Assembly: GCA_030390025.1 (NCBI GenBank) | Contig: CM059441.1 | Span: forward strand, 24,800,001-24,864,000 | Direction: 5' to 3' | DNA length: 64,000 nucleotides | DNA from: Squalus acanthias | Lineage: Eukaryota | Part shown: piece after piece, positions 1,235 through 59,866 of the stretch | How the letters are laid out: each line of letters begins with the position of its first letter | How positions within the stretch are numbered: position 1 is the stretch's first letter | Notes under the pieces: generated by a model | Databases searched by the model: none | Seen by the model: the letters and a program-made list of their open reading frames with translations, nothing else | Told to the model about the DNA's origin: nothing | Made by a program: the position numbers and the translations under genes

Positions 1235-1730
1235 ATTCTACAGCCCTCTGGACTCAACATAGAGTTCAACAATTTCAGATCATAACCTCGGCCCCTATCA
1301 CACATATATATATATTTTATCCACACTTTTTGTTTGGCCTTTTTTTCTTCCCTCCCACATGGCAGCTGTTCATTCTGCCAGCGCAATTCACACTTCATCT
1401 GGAGCCATCCTTTGTTCCTTAACCTGTCACATTACCACCTCCTCTTGTCTTGAATATCTCTTAATGTCTCTCAATGTCTCTCAATCTCTCCTGCTTTCTA
1501 TCCTGTCACTGACCTTCCCTTTTGTTCTTTCATCCCCTCCCCCATTTCCCAGCCCCTAAACCTGCTTTAAAATCTATTCCATTTCCTGCTTTTTTCCAGT
1601 TCCGACGAAGGGTTTCGACCTGAAACGTTAACTCTGTTTCTCTCTCCACGGATGCTGCCTGGCCTGCTGAGTTTTTCCAGCGTTTTCTGTTGTTATTTCG
1701 GATTTCCAGCATCCACAGTATTTTGCTATT
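1235..1730 (+). mobile_element. Penelope-like 3' fragment (ORF end plus pLTR)
   Basis: LQPSGLNIEFNNFRS* followed by pLTR sequence. Confidence 0.8.
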
Positions 1731-3432: not shown

Positions 3433-4206
3433 AGGGCGCGAAATTCGGTTACGCCCCGTTTGCGGGTGGTAACCGAGTTAAGGCCGGACACTTAGCGCCC
3501 GGCGTGGAAGTACTGCCCCGGCCGCTAAATTCGGCTTATCACCCCGCACAGGAAGTGAAGCGCACTTCCTGGTGGGGCGGTAACTGAGGCGATGCCGGGG
3601 CGCGCTCCGTGGAAGCTCCACGGAGCGCTGCCGCGTTTCAACACCCCTCCCCTTCTGTTAAAGGGGAGGGCCGCTGCGCACTCTGCAGGGCCTCCGATGG
3701 CCCCGACTCAGCCACCAGGGCGGTGTGGTGCCGCGGCAGCAGCCCGGAGCCAAGACGCGGTGCCGGGCTGCGCGATGGTGGCCAGGACCACGCCACAGCC
3801 CACCACAGAGGGCTCGACCTGGAGGTCGGCCAAAAAGAGAAAATGGTGACGCGGGTCGCGGCCGCACCTCCCCTTTAAATACCGCCCCGAGAGCGGAGGT
3901 TGGCCCGGCTCGCGACCCGCGAGGCTGGCGCTGACATCGCCCATGGCAACCTCGCGGGGTGCAGCCAAATTAATTCACGGGGCGGTAAGGGGTTGCAGCG
4001 CACAGCGGTGACATCATTGGCGGTGGCACGGCAGCCTGGGGCGCTACCGGCGGGGCGTGGCACTATCGGGTAGCGCCTCAGCAACACCCTACCGAATTTC
4101 TCGTGAGGTGCTTTTTCCGTCACCCCCAACAATAAGCATTTTGCGACCCGTTAGCGCCCCCTGGAGACGGTAACAACAGGCGCAAAGGAGCCGAATTTCT
4201 AGCCCT
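3433..4206. mobile_element. GC-rich non-autonomous DNA transposon (Harbinger-like MITE) in a CR1 tail
   Basis: TIRs agggcgcgaaattcgg / ccgaatttctagccct. Confidence 0.7.
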
Positions 4207-4472
4207 TCATCTCCAAAAATCTATCGATCTCAACCTCTAAATATCGGGTGTTACAATAGCGTCCCAGTGGGCTTTCCCCCACCTGTCTATCTCAGAGACC
4301 CTGAAGCCAATTGTGCTATCCCTACTGCTGCCTCAGCACAGACTAAGCATTGAATCTTGGACCAACTGGACTGTCTGGCTCCAGGTGGGGCATTTACGCA
4401 CTCAGGCGTGCAGGATACCGCAGCAATGAAACCCGGCAACTTGTTTTAAGTGTTTTGTTTTGATTCCAACAG

Positions 4473-24683: not shown

Positions 24684-24931
24684 TGTTGAGGCTGCCGCGA
24701 AACATGAATTAAGACTGAATCCATGTGTGGAAAAACAGAGACTTTTTAAGACAACTGCATGGTCCAAAATGGCTGAACAGACTGCTCCCAGAATTCTCTG
24801 GAAAAATCCTGAGGCCCCGCCCACTTCTTCTCTCCTGCCTTAAAGGCAAGGTGCCTTAAAGGCAAGGTGCTCGATATATTGTCCACGGACAGAAAAGTGG
24901 ATAATGCCCGTTTAGGTGGCGATCCGCCACA
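24684..24931 (-). repeat. 3' LTR (248 bp)
   Basis: Differs from the other LTR by about 3 substitutions and a 16-bp tandem duplication (ccttaaaggcaaggtg). Confidence 0.95.
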
Positions 24932-24945
24932 CAGCTCCCCCCAGA
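24932..24945 (-). promoter_or_regulatory. Polypurine tract
   Basis: Minus strand tctGGGGGGAGctg directly before the 3' LTR. Confidence 0.7.
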
Positions 24946-24951
24946 ATCCGC

Positions 24952-26313
24952 TTAGGAGGTGTGGACGAGATGGTGCGGCAGTCTGATGGGCCGGCCGGAG
25001 CGACTCTTGTAGGACGCCGGTGGACGTGGAACGGCCAGGCGTGGAGCCGCCGGGTGAACCGGCTTGAGGGCAGGTCGGCCACGTGGTGGTGGACGAGCTA
25101 CAGGGACCTGCTCACCGGGCTCCGAGTGTGCTGGCTTGAGTCGGTCAACCGACACTTTTTCGGTCCTGTCGCCCACTTGCAGGGTGAAAATTTTGTCCCC
25201 AGCCTGTAGCACCTTGTAGGGCCCGTCGTACGGGGGTTGAAGGGGTCCGCGGTGGGCGTCGTGCTGGACGAAAACGAACAGTGCCTGGTGCAGGCTTAGT
25301 GGGACGTGTGAGGTGGATTCGCCGTGTCGGGCAATGGGCACCGGGGCGAACTGCAGCGCCGGTGAGGCGCAGTCGTGGCGTTGCTGGTCGGCTGACCAGG
25401 GTGTCGTGGCGGTGGGCAGGAACTCACCGGGTACGCGCAGCGGCTGACCGTGCACGAGCTCTGCATGGAGGTCTTCTTTAACCGCGGTGCGCAGGCCAAG
25501 GAGGACCCACAGAAGTCGGTCGGTCCAGGCGCCGTCCTGGAGGCTGGCTCGAAGAGATGCCTTCAAGGATCTGTGGAACCGCTCACACAGTCCGTTGGCT
25601 TGGGGGTGGTACGCTATGGTGCGGTGAATGGTCACCCCGAGATTGCGTGCGACAGCGGTCCAGAGTTCAGAGGTAAATTGCGGACCTCTGTCCGACGTCA
25701 TGTCGGAGGGGACGCCGAACCGTGCGACCCAGGTGCTGACGAAGGCTCTGGCGATGTGGGCGGTGGTGGTAGAGGTCAGTGGAATTGCCTCGGGCCAGCG
25801 CGTGGTGCGGTCAACGATCGTCAGCAAGTGCGTGTGGCCTTGCGACGGCGGCAGGGGCCCGACGATGTCCACGTGGATGTGGTCGAATCTCCGCGAGGGG
25901 ACGGTAAACTCCTCGAGGGGTGCTTTCGTGTGTTGCTGTACCTTGGCCCGTTGGCAGGCTAGGCAGGATTTGGCCCAAGTACGCACATCCTTGTGAAGGC
26001 CGCGCCAGACAAAGCGGTTGGCTACCAATTTGATGGATGCGCGGGCGCCGGGGTGGGAGAGGTTGTGGAGAATGTCGAATACCCGGCGGCGCCAGGACGC
26101 TGGGACGACGGGCCGAGGTTGACAGAGGGATATGTTGCACTTGACCGTGACTGCGGTCGGGCCACAGGCGACGTCGGCCAGGCGTAGCCCTGGTAGGTTG
26201 GTAGGTGCGGAGAGCAGATCAGGGTCGGTGATCTGGTCTGCTGCGAGTTGAGCGTAGTCGACTGCCAGGTGTGCGGCGTGGATGGCGGGGCGGGAGAGGC
26301 AGTCGGCTACCAC
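24952..26313 (-). CDS. Integrase part of the same pol (out of frame after a short deletion)
   Basis: VADCLSR, H..SHPG...C..C zinc finger, HVDIVGP, SDRG, ERFHR (DDE triad), GPY motif. Confidence 0.9.
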   Translation of the reverse strand: MVADCLSRPAIHAAHLAVDYAQLAADQITDPDLLSAPTNLPGLRLADVACGPTAVTVKCNISLCQPRPVVPASWRRRVFDILHNLSHPGARASIKLVANRFVWRGLHKDVRTWAKSCLACQRAKVQQHTKAPLEEFTVPSRRFDHIHVDIVGPLPPSQGHTHLLTIVDRTTRWPEAIPLTSTTTAHIARAFVSTWVARFGVPSDMTSDRGPQFTSELWTAVARNLGVTIHRTIAYHPQANGLCERFHRSLKASLRASLQDGAWTDRLLWVLLGLRTAVKEDLHAELVHGQPLRVPGEFLPTATTPWSADQQRHDCASPALQFAPVPIARHGESTSHVPLSLHQALFVFVQHDAHRGPLQPPYDGPYKVLQAGDKIFTLQVGDRTEKVSVDRLKPAHSEPGEQVPVARPPPRGRPALKPVHPAAPRLAVPRPPASYKSRSGRPIRLPHHLVHTS

Positions 26314-28721
26314 ATTGTCTCGGACACTGCCACGAGCTGGCGCTGCTGCCTGGCGGACCAGGGGTCGGTTGTCTTTGCCATTGCAAATGTCAGGGGCTTG
26401 TGGTCGACAAACGCAGTGAAGGGGTGGCCCTCAAGCAAAAACCGAAAATGGCGGACCGCCAGGAACAGCGCGAGGAGCTCGCGGTCGAAGGTGCTGTACT
26501 TGACCTCCGGGGGGCGTAGTTGGCAGCTGAAGAAGGCAAGTGGTTGCCAGGCGCCGTCGACCCACTGCTCATACATGGCGCCGACCGCGTGGTCGGAGGC
26601 GTCCGTGGTGAGCGCTACCCTGGCATTGGGCCGTGGGTGCGCGAGCAGGGTGGCGTTGGCGAGCGCAGTCTTGGTGGAGTCGAAGGCGGCGGACGCGTCT
26701 GCCGTCCATTCGACCGCCATCTTGCCGCTCCTGCCCCGGAGAGCTTCATACAGGGGCCTCATGAGGGACGCTGCTTTGGGGATGAAGCGGTTATAGAAAT
26801 TCACCATCCCGAGGAACTCCCGGAGGCCTTTGATGGTGGTGGGGCGGGGAAATTGTTGGACAGCCTGCACCTTGGTGGGCAGGGGAATGGCCCCAGCATG
26901 GGTGATGTGGTGGCCGAGGAAGTCGATCTTGTCCAGGCCGAACTGGCATTTGGCTGGGCTGAGGATGAGCCCGTGGTCGCTGAGGCGCCCGAACAGGATG
27001 CGAAGGTGTTCAAGGTGTTCCTGCTTGGAGGAACTGGCTACCAGGATGTCGTCCAGGTAGACGAACAGGAACTTCAGGTCCCGAAGGACCGAGTCCATGA
27101 GCCGTTGGAATGCCTGGGCCACGTTTTTGAGGCCGAAGGGCATCCGCAGGAACTCGAACAGGCCGAAGGGGGTGATTACGGCCGTCTTGGGGACGTCCGC
27201 GGGGTGGACGGGGACTTGGTGGTATCCGCGCACCAGGTCGACCTTGGAAAAGACTGAGCGGCCGGCCAGTCTAGCCGAGAAGTCCTGAATGTGCGGCACG
27301 GGGTACCGATCAGGGGTGGTGGCGTCGTTGAGGCAGCGGTAATCCCCGCAGGGCCGCCAACCTCCGCCTGGTTTGGGGGCGATGTGGAGTGGGGAGGCCC
27401 AGGGACTGTTGGAGCGGCAGATGATGCCGAGCTGTTCCATGGTGGCAAACTCGGTCCGCGCGATCTCCAGTTTGGCCGGGTGCAGCCTGCGGGCGTGGGC
27501 GTACACTGGGGGGCCTGTGGTGGGGATGAAATGTTCCACCCCGTGTTTGGCGGCCTCCGTGGAGAAGGTCGGATTGGTAAGGGCTGGGAATTCGGCCAGG
27601 AGTGCCGAGTAGTCATCCGTGGCCCGGGCGTGGCACTGTGACGCCATGTCGGCGGGTTGACGGGGGGCCATGGCGCCCAGGATGGGGGACATGGTGTTCA
27701 TGTCCATGAGGCGGTGACGAGGGATGTCTACTAGTAGGCCGTGGGTGCACAGGAAATCTGCGCCGATGAGAGGGGAGAGCACCTTGGCAGTGATGAACTC
27801 CCATCGGTAGCGGCGACCAGCGAGGTCGAGGGTGACTGTCCGGGTGCCATACGTCTGGATTTCCGAGCCGTTAGCAGCAGCCAGCGCCGGTCCTCGTTTG
27901 CCCTTTTGGATGTCGAGGGAGGAGGCCGGGATGATGCTGTGCTGAGCCCCAGTGTCGCACAGGAACCGGCGGCCGGTTTTGTCATCCGTGACGTACAGCA
28001 AGGAGCCCGCGTGGCCCACGGCCATCACGGGGGCTGGTACGGGGGCGGACGTGAAAGAGCAGGGAGGTGTGCACCGTTGTGCCCTGGCGCCGAACCGTGC
28101 GTGGTAGTAACAGTGGCCCGGGTTAGTGGGGCGCGAAGGCCCCGTGGGCCTGGTGGCTGGTCCTTGTGGCCGCGTGGTGGCCGGTGAGGGGCGCGCCCAG
28201 GCATTGGCTGCCAGGTCCGGAGTGACGTCGCGGCTGGAGTGAGCGGACAGCAGCTTGTCGGCCTCATCAGCCAGGGCTTCCAAGTTCGTGAGGCCGGACG
28301 CCACGATCGCTGGGCGGATGCTGAGAGGGAGCTGGCGGATGAACAGCGTGCAGAAGAGGGATCCGGGTGGGCTCTCGTCGGTGAGGGAGAGCATGTGGGA
28401 GAGGAGGTCTGACGGTGAGGCATCACCGAGGCCTGGAAGGTCGAGGAGGTGGCAGTTTTGCTGATATGCCGAGGCCGTAAATTTTTTAAGGAGCGCTGCC
28501 TTGAGATGTGCATACTTGCCTTCCTCTGGTGGGTTCTGCAGCGCTGTCCAAACCTTTGAAACTGTGGCGCTACCGAGTGATGTGACGAGGTAGTCGTACT
28601 GCGTTCCATCTGTGGTGATGTTTCGCAGCTGGAAGCGGGATTCAGTTTGGAGAAACCAGGCTTCGGGCTGGTTTTCCCAAAACTCCGGCAGTTTCACGGA
28701 AACTGCGTTCGTGTCCGCCAT
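26307..28721 (-). CDS. Gag-protease-RT-RNase H polyprotein (ends at a frameshift)
   Basis: Gag VKLPEFW, CHCC motif CYYHARFG..A.RCTPPC, protease LCDTGA, RT YLDD, RNase H TTDASD. Confidence 0.92.
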   Translation of the reverse strand: MADTNAVSVKLPEFWENQPEAWFLQTESRFQLRNITTDGTQYDYLVTSLGSATVSKVWTALQNPPEEGKYAHLKAALLKKFTASAYQQNCHLLDLPGLGDASPSDLLSHMLSLTDESPPGSLFCTLFIRQLPLSIRPAIVASGLTNLEALADEADKLLSAHSSRDVTPDLAANAWARPSPATTRPQGPATRPTGPSRPTNPGHCYYHARFGARAQRCTPPCSFTSAPVPAPVMAVGHAGSLLYVTDDKTGRRFLCDTGAQHSIIPASSLDIQKGKRGPALAAANGSEIQTYGTRTVTLDLAGRRYRWEFITAKVLSPLIGADFLCTHGLLVDIPRHRLMDMNTMSPILGAMAPRQPADMASQCHARATDDYSALLAEFPALTNPTFSTEAAKHGVEHFIPTTGPPVYAHARRLHPAKLEIARTEFATMEQLGIICRSNSPWASPLHIAPKPGGGWRPCGDYRCLNDATTPDRYPVPHIQDFSARLAGRSVFSKVDLVRGYHQVPVHPADVPKTAVITPFGLFEFLRMPFGLKNVAQAFQRLMDSVLRDLKFLFVYLDDILVASSSKQEHLEHLRILFGRLSDHGLILSPAKCQFGLDKIDFLGHHITHAGAIPLPTKVQAVQQFPRPTTIKGLREFLGMVNFYNRFIPKAASLMRPLYEALRGRSGKMAVEWTADASAAFDSTKTALANATLLAHPRPNARVALTTDASDHAVGAMYEQWVDGAWQPLAFFSCQLRPPEVKYSTFDRELLALFLAVRHFRFLLEGHPFTAFVDHKPLTFAMAKTTDPWSARQQRQLVAVSETMW

Positions 28722-28746
28722 TGCAGTGCTCGGAATATGTTCTGAG

Positions 28747-28760
28747 CGTCGGGGTCACCA
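28747..28760 (-). promoter_or_regulatory. Primer-binding site complementary to tRNA-Trp
   Basis: TGGTGACCCCGACG, 1 nt inside the 5' LTR; complementary to the tRNA-Trp 3' end (CGUCGGGGUCACCA). Confidence 0.85.
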
Positions 28761-28761
28761 A

Positions 28762-28993
28762 TGTTGAGGCTGCCGCGAAACACGAATTAAGACTGAATCC
28801 ATGTGTGGAAAAACAGAGACTTTTTAATACAACTGCATGGTCCAAAATGGCTGAACAGACTGCTCCCAGAATTCTCTGGAAAAACCCTGAGGCCCCGCCC
28901 ACTTCTTCTCTCCTGCCTTAAAGGCAAGGTGCTCGATATATTGTCCACGGACAGAAAAGTGGATAATGCCCGTTTAGGTGGCGATCCGCCACA
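28762..28993 (-). repeat. 5' LTR (232 bp)
   Basis: Direct repeat of 24684-24931. Confidence 0.95.
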
Positions 28994-30227: not shown

Positions 30228-30447
30228 ATAATAACAACAGAAAACGCTGGAAAAACTCAGCAGGCCAGGCAGCATCCGTGGAGAGAGAAAGAGAGTTAAC
30301 GTTTCAGGTCGATGACCTTTCGTCAGAAAGGTCATCGACCTGAAACGTTAACTCTCTTTCTCTCTCCACGGATGCTGCCTGGCCTGCTGAGTTTTTCCAG
30401 CGTTTTCTGTTGTTATTTCAGATTTCCAGCATCCGCAGTATTTTGCT
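30228..30447. mobile_element. Fold-back (inverted) Penelope terminal insertion
   Basis: Perfect 92-bp arms 30230-30321 and 30326-30417; 15-bp TSD attatattttcctca. Confidence 0.88.
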
Positions 30448-49095: not shown

Positions 49096-49704
49096 TGAAA
49101 GAAAGACTAGCATTTATAATAATAGCGCCTTTCACAACTTCAGGATGTCTCGAAGCGCATTACAGCCAATTATGTACTTTCTGAAGTCTAGTCACTGCAG
49201 GAAATGCAGCAGCTCATTTGCGCACAGCACACTCCCACAAACAGCAATGCGACAATGGCCGTATCATCTGTTTTAGGTGTTGGTTGAGAGATAAATATTG
49301 GCCAGGATACCGGGGAGAACTCCCCCGCTCTTCTTCCAATAATGCCATGTGTGCTTTTAGGTCTAGCTGAGAGGGCAGATGGGGGCTCAGTTTAATATCT
49401 CATCCAAGAGACTTTAAACAAAAAAAATAATCCATGGACTGTTGTGGTGTGGGGGAGCAGGGGGAGGAAGGGGCGAAAGAGAATTGCTGGACGAAAAAAG
49501 ACCAAGGTCCATCTAGTTCACCTTCTGCCAGCCTGGTAGCTGCATGATGCAACAATAATGGAGTTGTTCACTAATCATGGCAATCAATCTCCATTAGTCT
49601 ACAACAGATCCAGACATGAGGCGAGGAAGAGGTCCAAAGACACCTGTCCCTCCCGGGCACGCTACACTCACCACACGTCATGTCTCAAATTACTCAAGAT
49701 ACAG

Positions 49705-52700
49705 TGTGGTAACACTTTTCAGCTTCCTGTATGACATCACTTCCTGTAATCAGTCCAGGATAAATACTGGACTGATCAGTTAGCTCTGGAAGAGGCATAG
49801 GGTAAGACCTCTTTTGTATGCAGCACCGTTTTAAGTTGATTAAAGCTTACATTAAGTTTACCACGCGTAAGGCTCATTCTTACGACAATTTAATCAACTT
49901 TTGAAAAACTTCGCACTCAAACTTTTTGGACGAACTCGGAGCTAAGGATCCAGGGAATCACCCATCATGGAAAACATCCTTAAACCATCGCGTCTTGACT
50001 TGGACCCAAACACCCCAGCAGCCGGTAAGGTGTGGAAACACTGGTATCGCACGTTTGAGAATTTTCTTGAGTATTGCAAAGCTGATGATAACTCAAAGTT
50101 GCGGATACTCATCAACTGTGTCACCCCGAATGTATTTCAGTATGTGGAAGACTGGGACAGTTATGAGGAGGCAATTCAGACGCTTAAGAGACTATATACT
50201 AAGACACCGAATGAGGTCTATGCTAGACATCTACTAGCTACAGCCCAACAAGGGCCGGAGGAATCCATTGATAAATTCCTCCAAGAGCTTCGCAGACTTA
50301 GTATGGACTGTAACTTTCGGGCAGCCTCAGCTGAGCTATACCGCGAAGAAATGATCCGTGATGCGTTCATCTGCGGGCTTGCCTCCCCATTTATACGCCA
50401 GCGTCTACTGGAAAGTAAGACACTTGAGCTGCAGAGAGCTTATGACCTGGCTTGCTCTCTAGATCTGGCAAAAAGAAATGCAGACCTTTTTACAGTGCCC
50501 AGACCTCGGTCTGCTGCCTTAACTACAGTCAGGCAATTTAAGAGGCCACAGGTGAACTCTATTAGGGAGGACTTTATCCCTGACGATCGATCTGATGACT
50601 TCACTGATGAAGAGGATGATGACCCCACTGTGGCAGCCTCTTGGCAATCTAAGAAATGCTTTTTTTGTGGTGATGAGTTTCACCCTCGGAGATTCTGCCC
50701 TGCTCGCAATGCGTTTTGCAGTCATTGCAACAAAAAGGGTCATTTTGTAAAGGTTTGCCTATCAAGAGCCTCTACGAGGGCTTATCAAGCTAAGTCCTAC
50801 CGAACTGCCCCAGTAAGGGCCTATCAGGATGTTCCAACTAAAAACTATCGTGCTTCCTCTCGGGTTTTTTCTCGAAGAAACACACCTAGAATTTCAGCCA
50901 CTCTTTGTGCAACGACACCAATTACAGCTGCTTGTCCTCAGAATCTATTCCATGCAGCTACAAAAGCATCAATTAATGGACATACTTTAGATGCCTTAAT
51001 TGACTCAGGTAGCACTGATAGTTTCATTAGGGAACAGACTGTTGCACAGTTAAAGCTACATGTTTTTCCATCGGACCAGGCAGTTGCGATGGCTCAGTCA
51101 TCACTTAATACCAGAATTTCTGGCTTCTGTGTAGTTGAAATAATGCTTAAAGGTCACAGGTATCCCTCCACCCGGCTTTCGGTGCTCAAGGACTTATGTA
51201 GTGATCTTATCTTAGGGCTGGATTTTCAAAAGCAGCATAAGAAGCTTACCATTGAGTTCGGCGGATCCAAACCTGAACTCACTATTTCTAATATACGACC
51301 TCGATTACCGTTCTGTGCCTTGTCAGCAGCTTCACTGGATGAACCCTCACTGTTTGCCAGTATCCCTCCTCGATGCAAACCGATTATAACAAAGTCACGC
51401 CGTTTCAGTCAGGAAGACCAGTCTTTTATTGCGGCTGAGATTTCTCGGCTTTTAGCAGAGGATATCATCGAGCCTTGTTCGTCGCCATGGCGCGCCCAGG
51501 TCGTTATTGTTAAGAACCCTCTACAACCTCACAAGAAACGGCTGTGCATTGACTATTCACAGACCATCAATCAGTATACGGACTTGGACGCATACCCATT
51601 GCCGCGCATCGATGATATGGTTAATAAATTGGCTGAGTACACGGTGTTCTCGACTTATGATCTGAAAAGCGCCTATCATCAGGTACCCTTGAAGGTCTCA
51701 GACAAGCAGTATACAGCCTTTGAAGCCAATGGGCGGCTGTATCAATTTCGTCGCCTCCCCTTTGGGGTCACTAATGGAGTGGCTGTCTTCCAGCGAGCAA
51801 TGGATGACCTGGTCAAACAGGAAGACTTGAAGGATACGTTTCCTTATCTGGACAATATTACTGTCGCAGGTCGCAATCAGCAGGAACATGACGCCAATCT
51901 CCAACGATTTTGGGATGCACTCCAGCACCGTAATTTGACATTGAATGCGGCTAAATCCATTGAGTCACAACCAACTATCAACATCCTTGGCTATTGTGTG
52001 GGCAATGGCATCATTAAACCTGACCCTGAAAGGCTTCGCCCACTCCAAGAACTCCCGCCACCTAAGAATCCGGCCTCCTTGCGCCGGGCCCTCGGCCTGT
52101 TTGCATACTATGCGAAATGGATTCCTAACTTCTCGGACCGAATCCAACCTCTACTGAAGGCCAGCACATTCCCACTAGACACAACGGCTGTTGCAGCCTT
52201 TAACCTCCTGAAAAAGCAGTTGGAGAAAGCGGCTCTTCACTCCATCGATGAGAGTCTTCCTTTCGTGGTTGAGTGTGATGCCTCGGAGGTGGCAATCTCA
52301 GCCACTCTGAATCAGGAAGGTCGTCCGGTGGCATTTTTGTCCAGGACTTTTCAAGGGGCTGAGCTACATTATCCTCCAGTCGAGAAAGAAGCTACAGCCA
52401 TCATAGAGGCAGTACGGAAGTGGAGTCATCTCCTGGCTCGCCAGCACTTTACCTTAATCACGGACCAGCGATCGGTCGCCTTCATGCTCGATAATCGAAA
52501 ACGGACCAAAATTAAAAATAATAAAATCCAGCTTTGGCGGCTGGAATTGGCCTCTTTTGGTTACACCATCCACTATCGACCTGGCAAGGAGAATGTGGCT
52601 CCGGATACCCTCACACGAGCATTCTGCTCCGCCATGGCACCCTCTACGCTCGTAGACATCCATGATGGGTTGTGTCATCCAGGCGTTACTCGCATGCTGC

Positions 52701-53787
52701 ACTTCGTGCGGTCCCGAAATCTCCCATTCTCTACCGGGGATGTAAAGAAGATGTGCTCGGACTGCAGAGTCTGTGCGGAATTGAAACCTCGGTTTTTCCG
52801 CCCCTCGGGTGGTATACTCATACATGCGACCCAGCCAATGCAAAGGCTTAGCATCGATTTTAAGGGGCCGTTGCCCTCTTCGACTCGCAACACTTATCTA
52901 TTAACAATGGTTGATGAGTATTCTCGTTTTCCGTTTGCCTTTCCCTGCCCCAATATGCTGACAACCACGGTTATCAGCTGCCTTGAACAGGTATTTGCTT
53001 TCTGTGGCATGGCATCCTATGTTCATTCAGATCGGGGCCCTTCTTTTATGTCGGGAGAACTCAAGGCCTATCTCTCGGAACGGGGTATTGCTGCCAGCAA
53101 AACGACGCCTTATCATCCGGTTGGGAATGGGCAAGTCGAGCGTTTTAACGCTATCATCTGGAATGCGGTACGTCTGGCTTTGAGATCTCGGGGCCTACCC
53201 AACCAGCATTGGGAAGCAGTACTTCCAGACGCATTACACTCCACACGGTCCCTCCTTTCGACCGCCACAAATACGACGCCTCATGAACGGTTCTTCCGAT
53301 TTCAGCGTCGCTCATCCTATGGGACATCTCTCCCGTCGTGGCTGACTGCACCGGGACCAGTGCTACTCCGAAGATATGTCCGGGCGTCTAAGAATGACCC
53401 CCTGGTAGATGAGGTTGAGCTCACTGACGTCAACCCTACCTACGCCTATATTCGGTATCCTGACGGTCGGGAATCTACCGTGTCATTGCGGGATCTGGCT
53501 CCCTGCCCGCCGAAACATAGAGGGACACCAGGGGATGATATTGTACCAGGCACATCTCTGGGCTTGCCAGGTGCCTCTCATCATGATCGGGATCTGACGC
53601 CGGCTGGTACCTCACTCCAGCGTGCCGACCTGGGGCAGACTGACTATGAGCCCGTCGGGGCTCGCACGCGCAGCCACGATCAACCCTGTACCGTACGCTC
53701 AGAAACGGATCTGCCACAGCCCTGCCCGACACCCATTCGGGTACCAGTACACAGTCAGGATCGTTCTGACCCCTCACAGAGCGGGCA
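49705..53787 (+). mobile_element. Ty3/gypsy retrotransposon (Mag-like) with a single 5' LTR, antisense in an RBBP5 intron
   Basis: LTR-like 49705-49887 (TGTGGTAA...TTACGACA), intact gag-pol, no 3' LTR, TACAG on both flanks (49700-49704 and 53788-53792). Confidence 0.88.
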
Positions 53788-53953
53788 TACAGTATCCCAA
53801 AATATTATCCCAAAACATTGCAAGACAATGTTTAACACTGCATACATGTTGAAAACCTACTTACATGGTACCGCCCCCCTCAAATGCACCACTACAACTC
53901 GGGTTACTGAAACTGCTCGCTACCATCAACAAAGTAGCTGTATGACGACATAG
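49967..53953 (+). CDS. Uninterrupted Gag-Pol polyprotein, 1328 aa (last ~55 aa read into flanking DNA)
   Basis: Two CCHC knuckles, protease LIDSGS, RT with YLDN, RNase H ECDAS, integrase HHCC plus SIDFKG/HSDRG/VERFN. Confidence 0.93.
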   Translation: MENILKPSRLDLDPNTPAAGKVWKHWYRTFENFLEYCKADDNSKLRILINCVTPNVFQYVEDWDSYEEAIQTLKRLYTKTPNEVYARHLLATAQQGPEESIDKFLQELRRLSMDCNFRAASAELYREEMIRDAFICGLASPFIRQRLLESKTLELQRAYDLACSLDLAKRNADLFTVPRPRSAALTTVRQFKRPQVNSIREDFIPDDRSDDFTDEEDDDPTVAASWQSKKCFFCGDEFHPRRFCPARNAFCSHCNKKGHFVKVCLSRASTRAYQAKSYRTAPVRAYQDVPTKNYRASSRVFSRRNTPRISATLCATTPITAACPQNLFHAATKASINGHTLDALIDSGSTDSFIREQTVAQLKLHVFPSDQAVAMAQSSLNTRISGFCVVEIMLKGHRYPSTRLSVLKDLCSDLILGLDFQKQHKKLTIEFGGSKPELTISNIRPRLPFCALSAASLDEPSLFASIPPRCKPIITKSRRFSQEDQSFIAAEISRLLAEDIIEPCSSPWRAQVVIVKNPLQPHKKRLCIDYSQTINQYTDLDAYPLPRIDDMVNKLAEYTVFSTYDLKSAYHQVPLKVSDKQYTAFEANGRLYQFRRLPFGVTNGVAVFQRAMDDLVKQEDLKDTFPYLDNITVAGRNQQEHDANLQRFWDALQHRNLTLNAAKSIESQPTINILGYCVGNGIIKPDPERLRPLQELPPPKNPASLRRALGLFAYYAKWIPNFSDRIQPLLKASTFPLDTTAVAAFNLLKKQLEKAALHSIDESLPFVVECDASEVAISATLNQEGRPVAFLSRTFQGAELHYPPVEKEATAIIEAVRKWSHLLARQHFTLITDQRSVAFMLDNRKRTKIKNNKIQLWRLELASFGYTIHYRPGKENVAPDTLTRAFCSAMAPSTLVDIHDGLCHPGVTRMLHFVRSRNLPFSTGDVKKMCSDCRVCAELKPRFFRPSGGILIHATQPMQRLSIDFKGPLPSSTRNTYLLTMVDEYSRFPFAFPCPNMLTTTVISCLEQVFAFCGMASYVHSDRGPSFMSGELKAYLSERGIAASKTTPYHPVGNGQVERFNAIIWNAVRLALRSRGLPNQHWEAVLPDALHSTRSLLSTATNTTPHERFFRFQRRSSYGTSLPSWLTAPGPVLLRRYVRASKNDPLVDEVELTDVNPTYAYIRYPDGRESTVSLRDLAPCPPKHRGTPGDDIVPGTSLGLPGASHHDRDLTPAGTSLQRADLGQTDYEPVGARTRSHDQPCTVRSETDLPQPCPTPIRVPVHSQDRSDPSQSGHTVSQNIIPKHCKTMFNTAYMLKTYLHGTAPLKCTTTTRVTETARYHQQSSCMTT

Positions 53954-54211
53954 ACTTCACTTATTGAATAACCATTTGTTCCACCCTCCCTCCACCATCA
54001 TTCCCTGTAATTTTTTTTGGCCCTGCGCGGCCATTCAAGATACCGCGCATTCACGGTTTTTACATTGAAAAGCCGGCTGCATGGGTTCCCTGGAGTGCTG
54101 TGGGGCCGCGCGGCTTACAGGGAACATTGCCCTGCCACTGCCACCGCCACCGCCCCCCCCCCCCCCCCCAACCTTCAAACCATTGAGTTATGGTGTTATT
54201 CCCAATCTCAC

Positions 54212-58943: not shown

Positions 58944-59156
58944 ATCAAAATACTGCAGATGCTGGAAATCTGAAATAGAAACAGAAAATGCTGGAAATAC
59001 TCAGCAGGTCAGGCAGCATCTGTGGAGAGAGAGAAAGAGAGTTAACGTTTCAGGTTGATGAGTTCTGACGAAAGGTCATTGACCTGAAACGTTAACTGTT
59101 TCTCTCTCCACAGATGCTGCCTGACTTGCTTAGTATTTCCAGTATTTTCTGTTTCT
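58944..59156. mobile_element. Fold-back (inverted) Penelope terminal insertion in an RBBP5 intron
   Basis: Imperfect inverted arms; intact hammerhead core on + at ~59061-59097; 14-bp TSD actaagaatgcagg. Confidence 0.85.
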
Positions 59157-59866
59157 ACTAAGAATGCAGGGGTTCCCCACCAGGGGAGCCTATAGTTTAT
59201 AGCTACTGGCTCACCCATTTCCTCTCCCCAGCCCCTAATCTCAGTCAGGATTGTCGAGGGAAACAGTGAACAGATGGGAAGGCCGTAGAGTTAGAAATTT
59301 ATCCAATTGTAAAATTGATCTTCGACGTTCCTCACTGGGAAGGAATAAAACAAGAATCAGAGGCTATGACATCCCCAACAAGCCACTTTCAGACACTCCC
59401 TAGTGGCTGGAATTGGCTGCAGCCTGAGATTTGGTTATTTTCCTGGCCAATCAGCCAAAGAATGATGCATGCCAGAGTGAGCCAACAAGGGGCCTGGTGG
59501 AACAACTTATTTTTATATATAAACTTAAATAATTGGCACAATTGCTTTTTAATCGCTCCCCCCTCTGCTGAAAACACTGACTCATGCTAGGGTTCCGCAG
59601 CCACGAGGCATCCTCTCGTACCTCACTCCGATGGCCATTCCAGGCATGGGAGTCCAGACACCAAGTGTGGGCGGGTCATTCAACTAGAGCGTGCTGCACA
59701 GTTGCGTACAATCCACTCTTCACCCGACACGTGCACACTTTCAAGCATGGGTCAGCGGTCAGGAACGGGAACCCCTGAGCTGTGGCTGTCATCTGGCAAT
59801 AGTCATTTGGATGGATCACCCTACAGATCCTTGCTCTAAGAAGCTAAGGTTATCCCCGGCACTTAC

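Follow-up and report, generated by a model that had tools for sequence, protein, structure and literature searches.

The element at the locus and its coding sequence

The window, the whole 64-kb stretch of DNA that was analysed, contains a 3'-truncated copy of a Ty3/Gypsy retrotransposon with a single-ORF gag-pol (Table 1). The ends of its long terminal repeat (LTR) were set by placing contigs of four public runs on positions 49400-54100. Contigs of runs X5 and X17 leave the window sequence at 53786, run for 155 further letters and re-enter at 49705, and 49887 is a contig end in runs X1 and X17; this joint and these contig ends define the LTR as 49705-49887. The LTR end that had been read at 49887 in a first-pass annotation is thereby fixed independently, by the X1 and X17 contig ends and by the target-site duplication TACAG. 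A duplication of 5 bp is observed in 12 of the 12 in-clade elements that have two LTRs and an exact duplication. Other copies continue past 53786 for the 155 letters and then enter a second LTR, and no second (3') LTR for this element is present within the 64-kb window. After the 3' loss at 53786-53792 a CA remains and the target duplication is intact; the frame stays open into the flank to 53953, its final ~55 codons being flanking DNA past the break. Near-identical sequence is found in 18 public runs, at no fewer than half of the words. Contig depth is higher over the LTR in RNA-like runs, an excess that was not taken to indicate expression or a start site. The U3 region carries an inverted repeat of 10-12 bp at 49749-49776, the loop of which holds GATAAATA, and a variant U3 that branches near 49735-49752 is seen in other copies.

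Table 1. Features of the window element, with the coordinates of three elements of a second lineage (window positions unless a contig is named)
Feature	Position	Strand	Remark
Left target-site duplication TACAG	49700..49704	+	identical 5 bases at 53788-53792
5' LTR, 183 bp, TG...CA	49705..49887	+	joints and ends in contigs of other copies
Predicted self-primer, LTR arm of duplex	49833..49844	+	exact complement of 49889-49900; covaries in relatives; primer role predicted
ATTAAA inside LTR arm	49839-49844	+	
Small predicted hairpin right after predicted cut site	49845..49857	+	RNAfold
Predicted 7-bp hairpin, U5-IR-like, just 5' of primer site	49866..49884	+	RNAfold
One-base spacer, LTR end to primer site	49888..49888	+	1 nt in 24/25 families
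Primer-binding position, no TGG, complementary to LTR arm	49889..49900	+	
One open gag-pol frame with PR, RT, RH and IN, lacking chromodomain and env	49967..53953	+	
Two CX2CX4HX4C zinc knuckles, Gag	50657..50758	+	
RT active-site motif YLDN, not YxDD	51845..51856	+	
Break: polypurine tract and 3' LTR gone beyond here	53786..53787	+	
Right target-site duplication TACAG	53788..53792	+	matches 49700-49704
L125 (G001:C39)	4060-4252		5-bp duplication
L131 (G001:C100)	3810-3987	minus	
L133 (G001:C160)	1259-1422		

The window protein shows the Ty3/Gypsy-type domain order, PR-RT-RH-IN after Gag, with the RNase H domain recognized by Pfam. The cysteines and histidines of the Gag zinc knuckles are invariant across 58 aligned proteins. 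Of 120 homologues, 65 have both knuckles, and a large part of the others are partial proteins. A chromodomain is found neither in the window protein, nor in any of 20 scanned homologues, nor among the precomputed Pfam entries for 120 hits, and SH3_Tf2-1 is likewise absent from the window protein and from all 20 scanned homologues. The lack of a chromodomain and the double-CCHC Gag noted in the first-pass annotation are both confirmed. Among the 120 homologues, the RT motif reads xxDN in 92 and YxDD in 15, with no match in 13; YLDN thus occupies the position where YxDD is usual, though many copies look recently active.

The window also contains a second Gypsy element on the minus strand (24684-28993), with two LTRs that are 92% alike, a TGG primer site and a CsRN1-type Gag; this element was used as a control. 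A long, nearly perfect inverted repeat of foldback, MITE-like type is present in two copies (30230-30417 and 58976-59157). No tRNA genes were detected in the window with ARAGORN, an Rfam search of 49650-50050 gave a single chance match (E 5), and a bacterial promoter scan, a method not applicable to an animal element, was empty.

Complementarity between the LTR and the primer-binding position

As had been claimed from the letters, positions 49889-49900 are the exact reverse complement of LTR positions 49833-49844. The two arms lie 44 nt apart, the pairing extends no further on either side, and the LTR arm includes the poly(A)-like signal ATTAAA. TGG is absent from the 8 bases after 49887, and the LTR boundary stands where the first-pass annotation had put it. 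Perfect 12-bp inverted repeats within 200 nt are not rare in the window (117 seeds, about 8 places), and for this reason the position of the repeat outweighs its length as evidence: 5000 rounds of dinucleotide shuffling of the LTR never produced a 12-nt complement starting 0-3 nt after the LTR, and produced one of 11 nt twice. The published criterion for predicted self-priming (PMC6317226) is an LTR complement of at least 10 bp starting 0-5 nt after the LTR, and the window element, with 12 nt at 1-nt spacing, falls within it.

Relatives were collected through the RT-RH region, which gave 1696 homologues among 8000 candidates scored; named hosts are Palaemon, Macrobrachium, Oratosquilla, Caligus, Xenia, Nematostella, Actinostola, Scyliorhinus and Trichuris. 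No relatives were found among viral contigs. The 58-protein alignment led to 80 metagenome loci (the best 80 of 566) and to 9 loci from host-contaminated genome bins. The bacterial bins behind loci L084-L086 (G001, G002 and G003) hold many eukaryotic Gypsy elements, with 109, 13 and 4 RNase H matches, respectively, and Maverick-like elements (L161 and L162) occur in the same bins; these are read as host contamination.

An anchored set was assembled from 20 two-LTR copies, whose ends were fixed independently of the pairing, and the window copy, giving 21 rows in about 13 families. In none of the 21 does TGG occur in the first 8 bases, and pairing with the copy's own 5' LTR is 11 of 11 in 16, 10 of 11 in 4 and 9 of 11 in 1. 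Three of the five imperfect copies pair perfectly with their 3' LTR, which points to decay after insertion. When all 37 loci with a gag start are considered (L019, with 37 nt upstream, and duplicate loci excluded), 34 pair at 9-11 of 11. Only 6-8 of 11 are reached by L002, L018 and L022, each with 128 nt or fewer of upstream sequence and an LTR end that is not fixed. These three loci count against self-priming, L002 being closely related to the window element.

Covariation of the two arms, proposed at the outset as a check, is observed: pairing is retained with altered letters in the relatives. Across 25 families, there are 20 different 11-mers at the primer site, and mean pairing with the family's own LTR is 10.76 of 11, compared with 7.58 for swapped partners. 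The summed own pairing of 269 lies above the maximum of 220 in 10,000 permutations, a comparison that ignores relatedness and that includes families without two LTRs, for which the anchor was picked to maximise pairing. Each of duplex positions 4-11 is occupied by two to three different Watson-Crick pair types among the 25 families. The cleanest case is locus L003, because it is free of both the relatedness and the pairing-chosen-anchor problems. Aligned with L004, L029 and L066, it has 44-48 mismatches over about 4,200 bases (~1%), and yet in L003 one base is altered in both LTR arms and the matching base is altered in the primer site.

The geometry of the duplex, partly fixed and partly variable, fits a primer. 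Its LTR-side end is constant, with a 1-nt spacer in 24 of 25 families, the duplex is 11-18 nt long (often 13-16 nt), and the loop spans 21-66 nt. Pairing exceeds background out to position 16 (0.56-0.92 versus 0.32-0.43) and is at background at positions 17-20. A loose pattern with TTT at its start is common to the primer sites. In 20 of 25 families a hairpin opens at most 2 nt from the arm, the stability of the loop being weak (mean z -0.64), and the 7-bp U5-IR-like hairpin predicted by RNAfold in the window (49866..49884) is not generally conserved among relatives. The four bases that follow the predicted cut (49845-49848 in the window) read purine-C-pyrimidine-T in 17 of 25 families, a possible cleavage-site context. 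Poly(A) hexamers are frequent in the arms: AATAAA or ATTAAA is present in 17 of 25, and a listed variant in 2 more. No recognisable hexamer occurs in 6 of 25 arms, all of which pair 11 of 11, and in 4 of 25 LTRs a second canonical hexamer lies unpaired in the loop.

For comparison, 27 other Gypsy elements with two LTRs of the TG...CA type were taken from the same loci and bins, including the one from the window. All 27 have TGG within 0-6 nt of the LTR, their own-LTR pairing is only 5-8 of 11, and their tRNA-type primer sites are nearly constant within a lineage. The control table is exclusive of L174 and L180, which have unclear ends, and of L125, L131 and L133, the LTRs of which are not TG...CA.

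These last three elements belong to a second long-branch Gypsy lineage in bin G001, with the RT motif CIDD and LTR ends other than TG...CA. The sequence following the LTR pairs with the element's own LTR over 14 nt in L125, 14 nt in L131 and 11 nt in L133, with the arms 65-71 nt upstream, and such pairing was seen in 0 of 1000 shuffles for each; L133 pairs only versus its 3' LTR. All three lack a tRNA site, the paired letters differ in each, and no poly(A) hexamer is present in the arm. A sister relation of the CIDD lineage to the main clade was neither supported nor rejected (AU p 0.23). This lineage favours priming rather than masking of a poly(A) signal as the role of the duplex, and it suggests that the trait is more widespread among Mag-related elements.

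Phylogenetic placement of the clade

Rapid, unrooted trees were built from the RT-RH region, with Tf1, sushi and named Mag elements outside the sampling. In a tree of 38 rows, the clade of the window element has a support of 100 and a long stem, and its unity is partly built in, similarity having been the basis on which its members were collected. A separate group (support 98) is made up of nine chromovirus-type proteins of algal, plant and fungal origin and from a frog. Joining the clade to the three fungal and frog rows, two of which have a chromodomain on record and one of which does not, is rejected (AU p 0.014), as is joining it to all eight kept chromovirus-type rows (AU p 0.046). In this unrooted tree, a branch with a support of 97 has the clade and the Mag-type controls on the same side, the controls being labelled Mag-type by their motifs. 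The RT phylogeny asked for at first pass hence places the clade outside the chromoviruses and apparently on the Mag-like side, and the clade is not a member of Tf1/sushi, though it would work like Tf1.

The double-CCHC Gag and the 5-bp target duplication are Mag features that the clade shares, and short LTRs are common to the clade and to the Mag lineage (Mag, SURL and Jule; the A, B, C and MolGy clades). The Gag proteins of the clade and of the Mag-type controls are weakly similar (25-26%). Whereas the Mag-type controls have a TGG primer site, the window clade has none, forms its own long branch (support 100) and carries YLDN. Two other assignments were rejected. Chromodomain matches in contaminant contigs are not chromoviruses; they are Maverick-like integrases, and a search from that Maverick-like chromodomain gave no matches. 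The name 'Selgy', considered for the clade, belongs to an unrelated Selaginella clade.

Proposed priming without a tRNA, and its alternatives

In Tf1, a distant relative from yeast in which self-priming is proven, an 11-nt self-primer located at the transcript's 5' end is cut by RNase H (PMC7175516), and an additional "pretzel" duplex yields a three-duplex structure (PMC10085805). Tf1-like self-priming from the transcript 5' end is the best reading of the window element and probably the correct one, and self-priming in some form is very probable, judging from the sequence comparisons. The transcript would start at the LTR arm or a few bases before it, at about 49833 in the window, and its 5' end would fold onto the primer site over the loop of 21-66 nt. 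The RNase H of the element would then cut where the arm ends on its 3' side (after 49844 in the window), and the freed 3' OH would prime short minus-strand strong-stop DNA. The 3' end of an LTR element's primer must adjoin the LTR end, and the duplex is the sole candidate at that place. The next primer site would be a copy of the primer, made in plus-strand synthesis, and this would account for the joint change of LTR and site even in near-identical copies. The first-pass proposal of tRNA-independent self-priming in a lineage outside Tf1/sushi therefore remains the favoured reading, being consistent with the covariation, the lack of TGG in all 21 anchored copies and the position outside the chromoviruses.

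The evidence for the 5' end itself is mixed, and an alternative arises here: the element may prime itself with an RNA other than the capped 5' end, namely an internally cut fragment, the 3' R copy or a second RNA molecule. This alternative has a small but real probability. A start at the arm is not marked by any promoter motif. A TATA-like box about 30 nt before the arm is absent in 24 of 25 families; in the window, the TATA-like GATAAATA at 49759-49766 lies 70 nt upstream and could instead start transcription near 49790. The arm is also present in both LTRs. In addition, the pretzel duplexes of Tf1 are missing: in a crude test of 35 nt of leader, the extra duplex between leader and loop is no better than in shuffles in 25 of 25 families (z below -2 in 0 of 25). 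Nevertheless, the pairing ends at 11-18 nt and drops sharply after position 16, which fits an RNA end at that point, and most families have an A-G-pyrimidine initiator-like motif 11 nt from the arm's 3' end (compare the initiator motif TCAKTY, PMC3601003).

The duplex could alternatively serve to conceal the 5' LTR's poly(A) signal, with priming by another route. Retroviruses have to keep 5' polyadenylation in check (PMC3694450), AATAAA, ATTAAA or a listed variant is present in 19 of 25 arms, and a partner located only behind the 5' LTR would provide the needed asymmetry. However, the arms without a hexamer are fully paired, the extra hexamer in the loop of four LTRs is left exposed, masking does not require the fixed 1-nt spacer, and the second lineage has the duplex with no hexamer in the arm. 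Masking would moreover leave the element without a primer site. As the main role, it is improbable, and that part of the "and/or" proposal in the first-pass annotation is not supported; because the arm overlaps a hexamer in most families, the duplex may plausibly silence the 5' LTR signal as a side effect.

Priming by some host RNA that is not the 3' end of a tRNA, such as a half-tRNA or an snRNA, is very improbable. The loose TTT-beginning pattern of the sites would fit a common outside partner, with the LTR match incidental, but the 25 families have 20 different 11-mers, each matching the LTR of its own family, the tRNA sites of the controls are nearly constant within a lineage, and an outside primer gives the LTR no reason to change in step. 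A chance inverted repeat or a wrong LTR boundary is refuted, in spite of the eight or so places in the window with perfect inverted repeats of at least 12 bp within 200 nt, by ends fixed through the contigs of other copies and the target duplication, by the shuffles and by conservation in relatives.

Relation to known elements and significance

Self-priming as proposed here has close counterparts. According to four papers (PMC7175516, PMC10085805, PMC4600332 and PMC6317226), Tf1, Tf2, Tj1 and Tf1/sushi elements, including the plant Tcn1, share with the window clade the Ty3/Gypsy domain order and the lack of a tRNA site, and likewise have a primer site that complements about 11 nt of their own LTR and directly follows the CA of the LTR. 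The window clade differs from Tf1/sushi in having no chromodomain or SH3_Tf2-1, a double-CCHC Gag, a YLDN motif in RT and an RT-RH region outside the chromoviruses. Compared with Tf1, its duplex is often longer (13-16 nt) and usually lies over a poly(A) hexamer, and a pretzel duplex was not found. Self-priming is also predicted, by the same criterion, for the TAR lineage of plant Ty1/copia elements (Houba and Osr-1; PMC6317226), which belong to another superfamily and other hosts; on that prediction, the trait arose outside Tf1/sushi before. Other LTR elements without a tRNA primer site are Skipper of Dictyostelium, the fungal GalEa and bivalve TRIMs (PMC5006619, PMC5445492 and PMC6934838). 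The accessible text of these sources describes a polypyrimidine stretch or an internal hairpin and reports no LTR-complementary primer, whereas the complement in the window clade lies in the LTR and covaries.

In the portions of the literature that were searched (including PMC5341516, PMC6238403, PMC8220671 and PMC2871265), there is no report of self-priming in a non-chromovirus animal Gypsy clade, the reported cases being Tf1/sushi, Tcn1 and the plant TAR copia elements; publications behind a subscription, Repbase, GyDB and the supplementary sequences of mollusc and annelid surveys are outside this scope and may already name the clade or record the trait. No paper with 'YLDN' was found in the literature text available, and the motif has no match in 11 of the 14 supplement files of PMC8556966, a scope exclusive of the.fas files. 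The primer-site 11-mers are absent from the seven supplements of PMC13524379.

Taken together, the two lineages raise a wider proposal, which we put forward tentatively and hold to be somewhat short of probable: tRNA-free self-priming may be an old and independently evolved trait of a large, Mag-related branch of animal Gypsy elements. This branch would comprise the YLDN clade, which has named relatives among crustaceans and cnidarians as well as in one shark and one nematode, and a very divergent lineage with LTR ends other than TG/CA. It would use a primer of variable length (11-18 nt), lack the pretzel and have a primer that also covers the 5' poly(A) signal.

Such elements are missed where annotation tools depend on a tRNA site, and they would themselves escape silencing by tRNA fragments at the primer site. 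The clade offers many natural pairs of primer and site with which the requirements for self-cutting by RT-RNase H could be probed. Among Gypsy elements, the literature as far as it was accessible links self-priming to the chromoviruses of Tf1/sushi; the same signature, joined to a different RNA structure in a clade that is widespread in animals and lies outside Tf1/sushi, would mean that elements have evolved away from tRNA priming repeatedly.
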